Source of the DNA: Dictyostelium discoideum
Taxonomy: Eukaryota
DNA: 64,000 bases
Direction of reading: 5' to 3'
Assembly (NCBI GenBank): GCA_000004695.1
Contig: CM000153.2
Span: 1,952,001 to 2,016,000, forward strand
The notes under the pieces were generated by a model. It was not told the DNA's origin, ran no database searches, and was given only the letters and a program-made list of their open reading frames with translations. The position numbers and the translations under genes are program-made. Positions 33,042-39,252 of the stretch are shown here, one piece after another; position 1 is the first letter of the stretch, and the number at the start of each line of letters is the position of its first letter.

Positions 33042-34076
33042 ATGAGCAAAGAGATTTTTATTGGCATTGATGGTGGTGGTACAAAAACATCAACGGTTGC
33101 AGTTGATTCAAATGGTCAAGAATTAGCAAGACATACATCACCATGTAGTAACTATCATAGTGTTGGTGAAGATTTAGCAAAAGCAGCAATTAACGAAGGT
33201 ATAAAATATGTAATTAGAAAAGTTAAGGAGACAATCACAGATGATGATAATAAAGAAGTTACAGTTGGATCAATTTGTTTAGGTATGAGTGGTGTAGATA
33301 GAGAGAAAGATAAACTATTAGTTAAATCATGGGTAACTGAATTATTGGGAGAATCAATCAACTACAGCATTCACAACGATGCAATCGTAGCTTTATCAAG
33401 TGGAACTCAAGGTAAACTATTTGGAGTTGTCATTATCTGTGGCACAGGTTGCATTTCATTAGGATTCAATAGGGAGGGTGTCTCAGGCAGATCAGGTGGT
33501 TGGGGACCATTATTAGGCGACTATGGCAGTGGCTACCAAATTGGTTACGATATCCTCAGACATGTTTTAAAAGCAAAAGATCAAGTTGGTCCAAAAACTT
33601 CACTAACTCAAGTTTTATTAGAAAAATTACAACTCACCAAAGAAGAAGATTTAATCTCATGGGCTTATGATCCAAAAACTCAAAGTTGGCAAAAGTTTGC
33701 TCAATTATCACCTTTAGCTTTTGAGCAAGCCCAATTAGGTGATGAAATTTCAAATTTAATTTTAGTTGATGCTGCAAATGCACTTTATGTTTGTATTAAT
33801 TAATTAATAATTAATAATTAATAGAAAACTTTATTTTATATTAATTTTTAATTATTTAATTAGGATTTAATTAATAGTGTTATTAAAAAGTTGGGATTGG
33901 ATAAAGAAGAGAAATTCCCATTGGTTTATACTGGAGGAAATATTGAGAGAAAAGGTATTCTTTCTGATCTTTTATCCAAGAAAATTATGGAAAATTATCC
34001 AAATGCTGAAATTTTAAATACTACTTGTGATCCTTCAATGGGTGCTGCTTTATTGGCATTAAACTCTAAGAAATAA
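33042..34076 (+). CDS. N-acetylglucosamine kinase (BadF/BadG/BcrA/BcrD ATPase family; NAGK-like); 2 exons: 33042..33788, 33864..34076 (about 319 aa)
   Basis: N-terminal IFIGIDGGGTKTSTVAV (human NAGK IYGGVEGGGTRSEVLLV), and middle …VVIICGTGCISLGFNREGVSGRSGGWGPLLGDYGSGYQIGYDIL (NAGK [41 protein letters not shown]). Exon 2 (acceptor taattag|) encodes DLINSVIKKLGLDKEEKFPLVYTGGNIERKG…CDPSMGAALLALNSKK*. The only phase-compatible donor is TAT|GTTTGT, which is non-consensus. Confidence 0.75.
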
Positions 34077-34676: not shown

Positions 34677-35658
34677 ATGAACCAAGATTTTGAGCACCAA
34701 TTATCTTTTCACAGTAATAATAATAGTAATAGTAATCATCATCACAGTTATAACAACAGTATAAATAGTGGTAGCAGTAGTAGCGGCAGTAATAACAGTA
34801 GTAATAACAATAGTTTCAACGACGAGATAGAGGGTGGTGAGATACAAGAAGAACCATATATCAGTAGTAGTAGTATAAGAACATCAGAACTTGACCAAAA
34901 GATTCTATTTCTTTCAAAGGATAGAAATTTAAGTAAAAGAACAGGATCAGAGGATCCTCAGTATGGATCTTTTTTCAATACTTTATCAGAGCCTTTAATA
35001 TTATCACAACAATCACATCAACAACATAAAAAACAAAACCGAGATCAACATTCATCATCGTCATCATCATCATCTTCTTCATCTTCTTCTTCAAGTCGTT
35101 CAAAGAGATCAAATCAACCACCACCTTTAGTTGGAATTGCAGCTATTAATCAACAACAACAACATTTACAAAAACAAAAACAACAATTACAACAACAACA
35201 AATTCAAATTCAATTACAAAAACAACAATTACAACAACAAATAGTTCAGCATCAAACTGAATTACAAAATAAATCAACACCTTCAAAAACCTCTTCAGCA
35301 TCTTCTCCACCTCAAAATACTTTATCAGCACCAGCACCACCAGCACCAGCACCAACATCAGCACCAACATCAGCACCAACATCATCATCAGTATCATCAT
35401 TAACACAACCACAAAAACCAAAGTAAGTTATTATAATCAAATCAAACTTTTTTATTTTTTTATTTTTTTTTATTTTTATTATTTTTTGAAAAAAAAAAAA
35501 AAATTTATTAATAATTTTAACAATTAATTTTAGATCTGTACAATATTCTCAACCAGCTCCTTTAGAAATAAGAGAAGAAAAGGTTGACCCTAATGTATGT
35601 ATCATTTTTAATGTTAAAAAAAAAATAAAACAAATATATAATAAAAAAAAGTGTTAAC

Positions 35659-35708
<50 letters not shown>

Positions 35709-36974
35709 ATTACTATTAGATAAAAGAAGAGTTTGAAAACACAGAAAGCAAAATATCATCGATTATTCAGTCTATGATTTGCCCAATAAGTCCATTACGC
35801 TCTCCATTTAACGAATCGATAGTTTATACCAATATTTCATCATCATCATCAGATTTTGATTATAATAATAGTAATAGTAATAATAGCAATAATAATAACA
35901 ATAATAATAATAGTATCACTGAAAACAATACAGACAAAATGATAAACAATCAACCCTCATCAACTAATAGTAAAAAATTAAAAACAAATGAAATAGATTC
36001 AAAAGATACATCAAACAATAACTTAAATGGAGCAGATTTTAAAAAAACTACAACCACCACCACCACAACTACTACATCATCAACATCAGAGCCAATTAAA
36101 TCACCAAATAGTAGTAGCAGTACCAACTCATCAGCAAGTACTACCCCAACTGTAAAGAAGGAAAAACTAATTTTAAAAATACCAAAGTTAGTTGTAAAAT
36201 CAGATAGCGGCACCAATAAAGAAAGCAATAGTAGTAATTCTTCTTCAACCACTTCAACACCAAAATCAAAAGACTTGGAAGAAAAAAAGGAAAAAGAAAA
36301 ATCTGAAAAGGAAAAGGGAGAAAAACTAGAGAAATCAGAGAAATCAGACAAATCAGAGAAAACAGAGAAAACAGAGAAAGCAGAGAAAACAGAGAAATCA
36401 GAGAAATCAGAGAAATCAGAGAAAACAGATCAACTTGAAAAAGCAGAGAAATTAGAAAAAGAAGAAAAAACAGAAAAAAAAAAAACAGAAAAAGTTGAAA
36501 AAGCAGGAAAAGTAGAAAAGAAAGAAAAGCCTAAAGATAAACAAACTAAACAAGAAAAAGAAAAAGAAAAGGAAAAAGAGAAAGAAACGGAAAAAGAAAA
36601 AGAAAAAAAAGATAAAGTTTCAAGCAAAAAAGATGAACTTCAACCAATAGAAGAAGATAAAAAAAAGATTGGTGGTAAAAGAAAATCAATAAATTCATCA
36701 AAACCAGAATTCAAATCAGATTCAATCGATATGGATATTGACGAACCAAATCCAAAATCCTCTTCAAATTATAACGATTCTGATGATGACTCCGAAAACG
36801 AAATTGATAAATCCGATAAAAGATCACAAAAGAAATCAAAAGTTGAATCACCACCAAAATCTTCAAAATTATCAAATGGAAAAGATAAAAAATCAACCAC
36901 CACCACCACAACATCGACATCTTCATCATCATCATTACCATCATTGTCATCATCTTCATCATCATTACCATTGC

Positions 36975-37057
<83 letters not shown>

Positions 37058-37639
37058 ACAACATCGACTAAGATTAAAAAAGAAGAACCACCACCTCCCC
37101 CTCCTCAACAACCTCCACCTCCACCACCTCAACAACCACCTCCACCGCCACCTCCAATTAATCCTTTCTCTGTTTCAGAGCACGATAAGAAAATAATAGA
37201 AAAAGAAACTGGTAAAGATTTAGGTTCAAGTAGAGATAGAGATAATAGTAGTAGAACTACCAACGGCAGAGATTCCGACAGAGATAGAGATAGTCGTGAA
37301 GGAAGTAGAGATCGTGATAGAGATAGAGATCGTGACAGAGATCGTGATAGAGATAGAGACCGTGATAGAGGTAGAGATCGTGGTAATGGTGATAGAGGGG
37401 AAGGAGACAGAGATCGTGACAGAAGTGGCCGTAGTGATAGAGATCGTGATAGAGATCGTGACAGAGATAGAGATCGTGATAGAGATAGAGATCGTGGTAA
37501 TGATAGAGATAGGGATAGAGATAGAGACCGTGATAGAGACCGTGGTAGGGATCGTGGTAGTGATAGAGATAGAGATAGAAAAGATAGCAATAGCAATAAT
37601 AATAGTAATAACAATAACAATAATAACAATAACAATAAC

Positions 37640-37672
<33 letters not shown>

Positions 37673-38587
37673 GACAACAACAATAATAATAACAATAACA
37701 ATAATAATAATAATAAAAGAGATGGTAATAAAGATGGATCATCTAGTGAATTAACACCAAAGAAAACTAAACAAGAGGAGAAATTAATTAGATCACAAAT
37801 TGATCAAATTAAAGAGGATGCAAAGGATTTGAAAAAACTGGCAAAAGAATTACAAAGTAAGAATCAAAATGAATGTTTGGAGATGTATTTACAAGTTGGA
37901 CTAAAGTACCTTTTAACCACACATTATATGATTGAAGTGAATGACCCATTACCAAACATCATTTCATTTTTATCCGAAATTTCATTGTTTTTTTCAAATA
38001 CTTCTCGTTTGGCACTTCATTTCAAAGATGATCCAAAAGCTTCATTATGTTTTAAATGTGAATCATTTTGTTGTATTAAAATGTTTTGTCTTAAAAAAGA
38101 TAATTTAAAACACACTAGAAAAGAGGTTTCCAGTGTGTACTCATCATTTTTACCAAATAGTTCTTCATCATCAAAATCATCATCATCATCGTCATCATCA
38201 TCAAATCAACCAGCAAATCCAGCAACAGCCCCATTAACACCAAATCCTGGTAATCCAAGTGAGTCACCAAGTCAAGCATCATCATCATCAAATCCAACAT
38301 CAACAACCCCATCAGCAACAACAACAACAACAACAACAGCAACAACAACCCCATCAACTACTGCAACTACAACTACAACAAGTAATAATAATCAACCAAA
38401 TACATCTCATGTAAATACTAAAATAGCACAATACTTTAAAGATACAGAAGATATTTTTAGAGGAATGGATGCTTGGGAAAAATCAATACTACACAGTAAT
38501 ATACCTGGTTTTCATTTTAACTTTTTCTATCAACCATACCTTGAATTTATTGATCAAGTAAAAAAAGAATCTGATAAACAGTCTTAA
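34677..38587 (+). CDS. Large low-complexity nuclear-type protein (about 1,225 aa) with poly-S/T/N/Q, EK-rich and (RD)n tracts; C-terminal ~250 aa may be an AF4/FMR2-like C-terminal homology domain; 3 exons: 34677..35422, 35534..35594, 35720..38587
   Basis: Donors are GTAAGT (35423) and GTATGT (35595). Acceptors are aattttag| and tattag|. All phases are consistent and join the ORFs 34677..35426 and 35774..38587. Coding repeats: (TCA/TCT)n giving about 50 consecutive Ser (36960-37060), an about 100-aa RD/RDRG dipeptide array (37290-37570), PPPPPQQ, poly-N and poly-T. The C-terminal region (TPKKTKQEEKLIRSQIDQIKEDAKDLKKLAKELQSKNQNECLEMYLQVGLKYLLTTHYMIEV … IFRGMDAWEKSILHSNIPGFHFNFFYQP) is non-repetitive. 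All minus-strand ORFs across this span are repeat artefacts. Confidence 0.6.
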
Positions 38588-38909: not shown

Positions 38910-39221
38910 ATGATTATCAAATTATTTAATTATATTACAAGTAATCAAAAAATATTATTTTTATCATTGGTTTTATATAGGTGTATTAATTCATTATTGA
39001 TTAATACTTTTTTTGATCCAGATGAATATTGGCAAAGTTTAGAGGTAGCCCATAAACTAGTATTTGGGTATGGTTACTTGACTTGGGAATGGTCAGAAGG
39101 TTTAAGAAGTTTCATTCACCCATTAATATTTGTTTATCTCTTTAAATTTTTAAAATTTTTAAATTTAGATTCAACATTTTTCATTGTAATTATAATTATT
39201 TAATTTTTAATTTCATTATTT

Positions 39222-39252
<31 letters not shown>

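Follow-up and report, generated by a model that had tools for sequence, protein, structure and literature searches.

The question raised by this locus is whether a long, largely low-complexity protein of Dictyostelium discoideum ends in a domain of the kind found in the AFF proteins, which are usually described as metazoan. The gene lies at positions 34677-38587 on the forward strand of a 64,000-nucleotide stretch of contig CM000153.2 (assembly GCA_000004695.1, positions 1,952,001 to 2,016,000), hereafter called the window, and all parts of the gene described below are on the same strand and numbered by window position. It encodes 1,224 residues, of which about 940 are low complexity, and the C-terminus is folded. 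We consider that this gene is the amoebozoan counterpart of the AFF/Ebp1 class, that is, a dimeric disordered scaffold for RNA polymerase II (Pol II) elongation factors, with a probability of roughly 80%. The homology was shown with the profiles and the predicted fold described below, and it is the function that we infer.

Relatives of the protein were collected by an exhaustive phmmer search of its C-terminal 283 residues (residues 942-1224) against 1.84e9 representative proteins. The search returned 11 matches, and ten of them were true relatives that aligned over the whole domain; the remaining one, a Cys-rich repeat protein (P0004), was dropped as spurious. All the relatives with a named source came from Amoebozoa, including Balamuthia mandrillaris (KAL6073858.1, P0002, under the source name 'HECT domain-containing protein'), Pelomyxa schiedti (KAH3759854.1, hypothetical), Mastigella eilhardi and Nematostelium gracile. 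The closest match, at 50% identity, was an orthologue from another dictyostelid, encoded at 268-3444 of contig Ga0256900_1005369 in the JGI metagenome 3300028160. This contig (L001) is 3,467 bp long with 28% G+C and carries one open reading frame (ORF) of 1,058 codons. The exact window protein was absent from the protein collection searched. A word-indexed protein search with the 283-residue piece, with a loop-deleted concatenation or with the alignment used below gave zero matches, though the relatives sit in the same collection, probably because the candidate list was saturated by low-complexity words.

The window protein and its ten amoebozoan relatives were combined into one alignment (A1), which holds no AFF sequence at all. 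When the A1 profile was compared with PDB, the three structures of the AFF4 C-terminal homology domain (CHD, also named THD) were found with E = 1.3e-22 (84 bits), and the next match had E = 0.022. Comparison with the AFF4 CHD by hhalign gave a probability of 98.6% and E = 1.2e-15 over 193 columns, and identity to AFF4 in the CHD was about 20% (40 of 197 aligned columns). The orthologue passed the curated Pfam model AFF4_CHD (PF18876, cut-off 24 bits). The gene call on L001 (P0001), which covered only the last 227 residues of the full-length ORF, scored 39.4 bits, and the full ORF scored 37.2 bits over profile positions 5-218 of 264. Several other relatives also passed AFF4_CHD, its sister family THD_CWZF3-5-7 (PF24756, cut-off 27 bits), or both.

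The preliminary description of this locus had guessed an AFF-type CHD from two landmarks, a K-rich helix and a W-E-K-S string near the C-terminus. Both strings were found in the protein, the first as helix 1 of the domain and the second in the helix after an internal loop, and both map to AFF. Helix 1 carries the motif EA.KLKH.AD in the relatives, EDAKDLKKLAKEL in the window protein and QEAKKLKHNADAL in AFF4, and the DAWEKS string of the window protein aligns with EIWDQA of AFF4. Other conserved AFF landmarks are an LC.KC helix and a D.W.KAE motif after the loop. With the profile match, the hhalign probability and an orthologue above the Pfam cut-off, the guess is supported. These results, together with the predicted fold, indicate homology between the C-terminal domain and the AFF4 CHD, which is the only region shared with AFF4 with confidence.

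The window protein taken by itself gave a much less favorable picture, and the results of this paragraph, apart from the full-length phmmer match and the Smith-Waterman alignment, weigh against the assignment. The hmmscan of the C-terminus against Pfam, which had been proposed as a check, looks negative alone, with 8.6 bits and E = 1.5 for AFF4_CHD using the 283-residue piece and 10.2 bits using its N-terminal half, and the match was gone entirely once the loop was deleted from the sequence. The score against THD_CWZF3-5-7 was 15.6 bits, obtained only with the loop deleted and also below the cut-off. Alone, the window protein falls under every curated threshold. In a phmmer search against all PDB sequences, the three AFF4 CHD entries were the sole significant matches (E = 6e-6 to 9e-6), with the core of the match in the segment LCFKCESFCCIKMFCLKKDN. 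However, about half of the 29-bit score to AFF4 was due to the Ser-rich loop, and because the N-terminal half without this loop matched AFF4 only at E = 0.4, the original E of 6e-6 was inflated by it. The last 62 residues alone did not match AFF4 in PDB by phmmer. In a Smith-Waterman alignment, the N-terminal half of the AFF4 CHD was collinear with the window protein over 136 residues with a score of 74, which none of the 500 shuffles reached (40 +/- 5.8). Judged from one sequence at a time, the evidence for an AFF CHD is no more than suggestive.

We then turn to the fold. AlphaFold2 was run on the C-terminal piece with the amoebozoan alignment and without templates. The model had a mean predicted local distance difference test score (pLDDT) of 75, with 118 residues at 90 or above, and placed helices at model residues 12-39, 44-67, 72-95, 99-138, 223-253 and 268-282, with disorder at 139-222. 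The N-terminal part of the domain (37769-38149, residues 953-1079) contains four predicted helices that match AFF4 helices 1-5, including the LCFKCESFCCIKMFCLKK helix, with pLDDT 89-98 over most of its length. It is followed by a disordered loop rich in Ser, Thr and Pro (38150-38401, residues 1080-1163, pLDDT 41-51), and then by the C-terminal part (38402-38584, residues 1164-1224), consisting of helix 6 with Y1174, T1178 and the DAWEKS string, and of the last helix. The C-terminus had been described as ordinary sequence, which is correct for residues 953-1079 and 1164-1224 and incorrect for the 84 residues of the loop between them. The fold that defines the CHD/THD, a tetratricopeptide repeat (TPR)-like helical domain that has a handle and, between helices 5 and 6, a disordered loop, is found in the model, and in the suggested comparison of the predicted fold, AFF4 was the clear top match in two structure searches and aligned over the whole length. 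The loop lies where AFF4 has its loop G1045-S1082, a stretch not seen in the crystal (PMC7026398).

In the AFF4 dimer, F1014 and Y1096 centre the two hydrophobic cores and Y1096 is hydrogen-bonded to T1100', and the residues L1011, F1014, K1018, Y1096 and T1100 are critical for dimerisation (PMC7026398). By the profile-guided alignment, F1014, Y1096 and T1100 correspond to F1058, Y1174 and T1178 of the window protein, L1011 to I1055 and K1018 to K1062, while F1103 is replaced by Ile and L1104 by Phe. Dimer contacts that differ are V1099, which is Asp here, and Y1024, which is Thr. This pattern of residues suggests that the protein likely homodimerises via the handle helices, with F1058, Y1174 and T1178 at the interface. 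It also bears on another explanation of the AFF4 similarity, namely that low complexity and a generic TPR-like helical fold produced it without common ancestry. We regard such an artefact as very improbable, since the profile match was driven by the helical parts, the hhalign alignment extends over 193 columns at 98.6% probability, AFF4 led both structure searches along its whole length, the specific dimer-core residues and the position of the loop are conserved, and the orthologue exceeds a curated Pfam cut-off.

The gene model was derived from the genomic sequence. Exons at 34677-35422, 35534-35594 and 35720-38587, separated by GT..AG introns, give a single open frame of 1,224 residues, and this in-frame GT/AG combination was unique among those tried. 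Exon 1, starting with the ATG at 34677 and ending before a GTAAGT donor at 35423, encodes residues 1-248 and two bases of codon 249; it is an N/S/Q-rich low-complexity region, and its product and the N-terminus of the L001 ORF are homologous and share the start MNQD. Exon 2, with an AG acceptor and a GTATGT donor, has only 61 nucleotides (residues 249-269, SVQYSQPAPLEIREEKVDPN) and is needed to close the frame between exons 1 and 3; its peptide is kept in L001 as IVNYTQPVPIKIREE. Exon 3 encodes residues 270-1224 and the stop codon, and a single open frame runs in it through the motifs that we call C and D, the low-complexity arrays and the CHD.

A listing of open reading frames begins the long ORF at the ATG at 35774, and the folded C-terminus might be thought to belong to a separate, shorter gene. 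The 937-residue ORF of 35774-38587, however, continues in frame upstream as far as the acceptor at 35718-19, and motif C begins seven codons upstream of this ATG, which is the first of exon 3, immediately behind a splice acceptor of which the AG is also an in-frame stop. Exon 3 is therefore unable to start a protein alone and must join an upstream exon. Moreover, the CHD, an Arg-Asp array and motif C share the uninterrupted frame of 937 codons, and conserved motifs A, B and C occur together with the CHD in single proteins of Balamuthia and other relatives. Further support came from L001, of which the uninterrupted ORF of 1,058 residues aligns with the window protein end to end, including the 20-residue exon 2 peptide and the exon 1/2 junction (QKPK joined to SVQYSQPAPLEIREE in the window protein, QQPKIVNYTQPVPIKIREE in L001). 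Because the orthologue is one uninterrupted ORF spanning all three exons' worth of protein, it supports the three-exon model independently, and a separate gene for the C-terminus is barely conceivable. The three-exon gene noted at this location is in agreement with these results. The L001 ORF has no introns, as opposed to the two of the window gene, and the contig ends without poly-A; the sequence may derive from cDNA or represent a gene without introns.

What a CHD says of function was considered with the sister family. The cut-off of THD_CWZF3-5-7 was passed by P0002, P0003, P0006 and P0011. P0002 scored 38.1 bits against this family versus 34.7 against AFF4_CHD, and P0011 scored 41.4 bits and passed THD_CWZF3-5-7 only, whereas P0001 scored 39.4 bits against AFF4_CHD versus 15.5 against THD_CWZF3-5-7. 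Since some amoebozoan relatives pass PF24756, the amoebozoan group bridges the two families. In P0002, Pfam finds only THD_CWZF3-5-7 and AFF4_CHD, and its name as a HECT domain-containing protein looks like a misannotation. The THD fold is also present in plant CW-zinc-finger proteins (PF24756), so that the domain by itself is no proof of a role resembling the one played by the super elongation complex (SEC), and this counts against the proposed function.

In the main alternative reading, the protein may be a true THD/CHD homologue without being an elongation scaffold, the domain serving as a general dimerisation module that is joined to varying disordered or chromatin-binding arms, as in the plant CW-zinc-finger proteins, and the amoebozoan proteins acting in another nuclear process such as RNA processing. 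The existence of the plant family and the relatives that score equally or better against THD_CWZF3-5-7 are consistent with this, as are the negative searches for P-TEFb and AF9 motifs and the RS arrays of the Pelomyxa and Mastigella proteins, which together with the RD array of the window protein are of a type usual in splicing-related proteins. On the other hand, neither a CW zinc finger nor any other Pfam domain was detected in the window protein or its relatives, the dictyostelid orthologue is far better matched by AFF4_CHD, the protein is laid out overall like AFF and Ebp1, and motif C has its best AFF4 match at the ELL-binding site. On this balance we consider a role outside elongation unlikely, and prefer the elongation-factor scaffold. 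The plant CWZF3/5/7 proteins are then best compared as a sister family of the same THD domain, from which the window protein differs by having no CW zinc finger (among its 1,224 residues are only 7 Cys and a single Trp), by its score of 15.6 bits against the cut-off of 27, and by the preference of its orthologue for AFF4_CHD.

The order of elements outside the CHD is shared by the relatives across Amoebozoa: motifs A and B, motif C, a charged or low-complexity region, and the CHD. Motif A has the form S-LD-x-R-I, motif B [HYW]G[ST]F[FIY]P and motif C I..I...M..P[LI].P[LM]LSP. Motif C (35753-35821, residues 281-303, ISSIIQSMICPISPLRSPFNESI) is the best conserved of the short motifs, and a leave-one-out hidden Markov model (HMM) built without the window protein found it with 15.1 bits, a score that none of 3000 shuffles reached. 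When the motif C profile was compared with AFF4 residues 1-900, it matched best the core of ELLBow, the ELL2-binding segment of AFF4 (AFF4 301-351); 2 of 2000 decoys were as good, and 10 of 3000 when L001 was added. By hhalign, the P value was 7e-4 to 1e-3 against ELLBow and 0.14 against AFF4 2-73, the P-TEFb-binding fragment. The 22-residue motif C of L001, VSSIVKFMVDSFPDPVPMLSPP, aligned with ELLBow without gaps at p of about 1e-3, so that the profile and this 22-mer both select the ELLBow core within AFF4, at p of about 1e-3 to 3e-3. The AFF4 sequence used here is identical to the PDB chains for residues 2-73, about 301-351 and the CHD.

Mutation of the ELLBow helix residues V316, I319, L320 and M323 abolishes ELL2 binding (PMC5290273). 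In the gapless alignment anchored on the shared Met, these four residues correspond to Ile, Ile, Ile and Met in the window protein, and three more hot spots, W327, L331 and I334, have Phe, Val and Leu as their counterparts in L001. Three points reduce the weight of this comparison: the window protein has Arg at the position of AFF4 L331, the motif C profile did not retrieve the ELLBow chain from all of PDB although 5jw9_A is in the library, and the resemblance was spotted by eye before it was tested statistically. We therefore take the resemblance of motif C to the ELL-binding ELLBow, at p of about 1e-3, as suggestive only, and motif C as a candidate ELLBow-like element. Another assignment of the same region, in which KISSIIQSMI was taken as the AFF4 P-TEFb-binding helix KLSSRIQSML, was rejected; its Smith-Waterman score was not significant against shuffles, hhalign gave the P of 0.14 mentioned above, and the profile favours ELLBow. 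A PDB search with residues 249-307 returned nothing.

Motifs A and B (34890-34976, residues 72-100, LDQKILFLSKDRNLSKRTGSEDPQYGSFF) lie in exon 1 and are conserved across Amoebozoa, L001 included. An HMM built from four other amoebozoan proteins found exactly residues 72-100 with 6.5 bits, a score that only 1 of 3000 shuffles reached, and the profile of the two motifs had no match in AFF4 2-73. Motif D (36158-36196, residues 416-428, KEKLILKIPKLVV) is a short strand-like motif common to some relatives; the window protein, P0005 and P0014 each contain a single copy of the pattern [LIVM]x[LIVM][KR][ILV]P, and L001 carries KLIIKFPK. Its stretch KLILKIPKLVV (LILKIPKL) is alike by eye to the AF9/ENL-binding strand of AFF4. 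This candidate found no support, as the motif D profile matched nothing in the AFF4 1-900 sequence used or in PDB. Motif E (37160-37201, NPFSVSEHDKKIIE) has a near-identical counterpart in L001, NPFSVTEHDKKIIE, and neither AFF4 nor any of the other amoebozoan relatives has it; by this distribution it looks like a dictyostelid-specific docking motif.

Two further negatives have to be set against an AFF-like scaffold. The AFF N-terminal homology region with the P-TEFb-binding segment (AFF4 32-67; Pfam AF-4) gave no Pfam AF-4 match in the window protein or in any relative, and for the strand motif that binds the AF9/ENL AHD, the motif D profile had no match in AFF4 1-900 or in PDB.

When the protein is compared as a whole with human AFF4 (and AFF1-3 and Drosophila Lilliputian), the scaffolds of the SEC, the likeness consists of a mostly disordered, Ser-rich polypeptide ending in a CHD/THD, the position of the internal disordered loop, the dimer core, in which F1014, Y1096, T1100, L1011 and K1018 of AFF4 are Phe, Tyr, Thr, Ile and Lys here, and the conserved motif C, of which the best AFF4 counterpart appears to be ELLBow. 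The differences are that the segment after helix 6 is shorter in the window protein, with the profile leaving the last ~30 residues unaligned, that it carries motifs A, B, D and E of its own besides huge RD, EK, Ser and Asn arrays, and that a P-TEFb-binding segment, an AF9/ENL motif and a Pfam AF-4 match are not detectable in it.

A closer functional analogy is found in fission yeast. S. pombe Ebp1 is a non-metazoan AFF relative in a rudimentary Ell1-Eaf1-Ebp1 complex; it has only a C-terminal signature in common with AFF proteins, functions together with ELL and EAF, and owes its link to AFF to PSI-BLAST scores that were borderline (PMC6212713). Compared by description only, the two proteins are alike in having a disordered N-terminal part and the AFF-type C-terminal signature as the sole shared region, and Ebp1 provides the best analogy in function to a minimal scaffold of the AFF type. 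They differ in that AFF4 is reached with much less difficulty from the amoebozoan profile (E of 1e-22 in PDB) than it was from Ebp1 with its borderline scores, which ties the amoebozoan family to the AFF4 CHD much more strongly, and in that ELL binding has been demonstrated for Ebp1, whereas for the Dictyostelium protein we infer it.

On these grounds, we propose that the protein would act as a long disordered polypeptide with short docking motifs, ending in an AFF4-type CHD with its TPR-like domain and handle. The CHD would homodimerise via the handle helices (F1058, Y1174, T1178), and the disordered arm would recruit Pol II elongation factors, with motif C most likely docking an ELL-type occludin-homology domain as the AFF4 ELLBow does. 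Such a dimeric scaffold may concentrate elongation factors on transcribing or paused Pol II, in an assembly that would resemble the rudimentary three-subunit complex of S. pombe (Ell1-Eaf1-Ebp1) more closely than the complete SEC of metazoans. A function in pause release is conceivable because D. discoideum has homologues of NELF-A and NELF-C (PMC4940160).

The low-complexity part of exon 3 is divided into blocks of different composition. A Glu-Lys-rich block (36278-36616, residues 456-568) is followed by a Ser block (36917-37069, residues 669-719) with 40 Ser in 51 residues, a Pro/Gln block (37082-37159, residues 724-749), an Arg-Asp dipeptide array (37229-37585, residues 773-891) and a poly-Asn block (37583-37723, residues 891-937). 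The preliminary description was right as to the presence of these blocks and estimated the Arg-Asp array at about 100 residues, which we find to be 119 with 36 RD dipeptides; its run of 50 consecutive Ser was not confirmed, as the longest pure Ser run is 27.

Dipeptide arrays of the RD and RS types are present in nuclear regulators, e.g., the RD motif of NELF-E and the RS domains of SR proteins. The likeness to them is a compositional resemblance alone and consists of the long alternating Arg-Asp array of 119 residues here and the RS arrays of the archamoebal relatives. In L001 the equivalent position is also occupied by an RD array, and in the Pelomyxa and Mastigella relatives (P0007, P0014) RS arrays lie upstream of the CHD at the same place as the RD array. 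The RD array may be a stand-in for a phosphorylated RS array, and the conserved position of RD and RS hints at a function of the charge pattern. That the RD array or the Ser tract acts as an RS or transactivation domain is speculation. Within the proposed mechanism, the RD, EK and Ser arrays would probably serve in nuclear targeting or in multivalent electrostatic interactions of the phospho-RS type.

As to prior knowledge, the author of the preliminary description was not aware of an annotated AFF homologue in Amoebozoa. The literature searched contained no report of an AFF-like protein from Dictyostelium or other Amoebozoa, and S. pombe Ebp1 was the sole non-metazoan AFF relative reported there (PMC6212713). 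Automated Pfam annotation, on the other hand, already labels the orthologous contig L001 as AFF4_CHD. The protein is accordingly a new, unusually divergent member of a known domain family, of which a fungal relative and a plant THD family were already known. What is added here is the Amoebozoa-wide alignment, the conserved dimer residues and the candidate ELL-binding motif. Routine annotation is likely to miss or mislabel the family, given that the Pfam cut-off is not reached by the window protein and that the name of a HECT domain protein is attached to the Balamuthia relative.

The homology traces the scaffold back to the ancestor that Amoebozoa share with fungi and animals, and given the plant THD proteins, the scaffold domain may date close to the last eukaryotic common ancestor. 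A bolder proposal is that Amoebozoa have a working minimal super-elongation-type complex, in which a dimeric AFF-like scaffold recruits ELL via an ancestral ELLBow-like motif C; this we hold only tentatively, at somewhat less than even odds. If it is true, the partnership of AFF and ELL would be older than the split of Amoebozoa from animals and fungi, and Dictyostelium, which also has NELF, would be a simple genetic model for pause release by a SEC-like machine. Apart from this proposal, the gene and its relatives offer a tractable organism in which to study the role of the CHD beyond dimerisation, the ancestral docking motifs, and NELF pausing with SEC-like release outside animals.

A few minor features of the locus were also observed. 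The peptide of exon 2 (35534-35594) contains Y-S-Q-PAPL, resembling Y-E-PAPL just upstream of motif C in Balamuthia P0002 (residues ~176-186), and this may be a further small conserved element. The base composition of the window (about 22% G+C) and its short, AT-rich introns are those of a typical dictyostelid genome, and intron 2 has an unbroken run of 47 A at 35660-35706. The flanking genes are ordinary and have no functional link to the scaffold gene; the upstream neighbour (33042-34076) encodes a BadF/BadG/BcrA/BcrD-type ATPase (N-acetylglucosamine-kinase-like), and the downstream neighbour (38910-40550) is a multi-exon gene for an Alg9-like mannosyltransferase (Glyco_transf_22).

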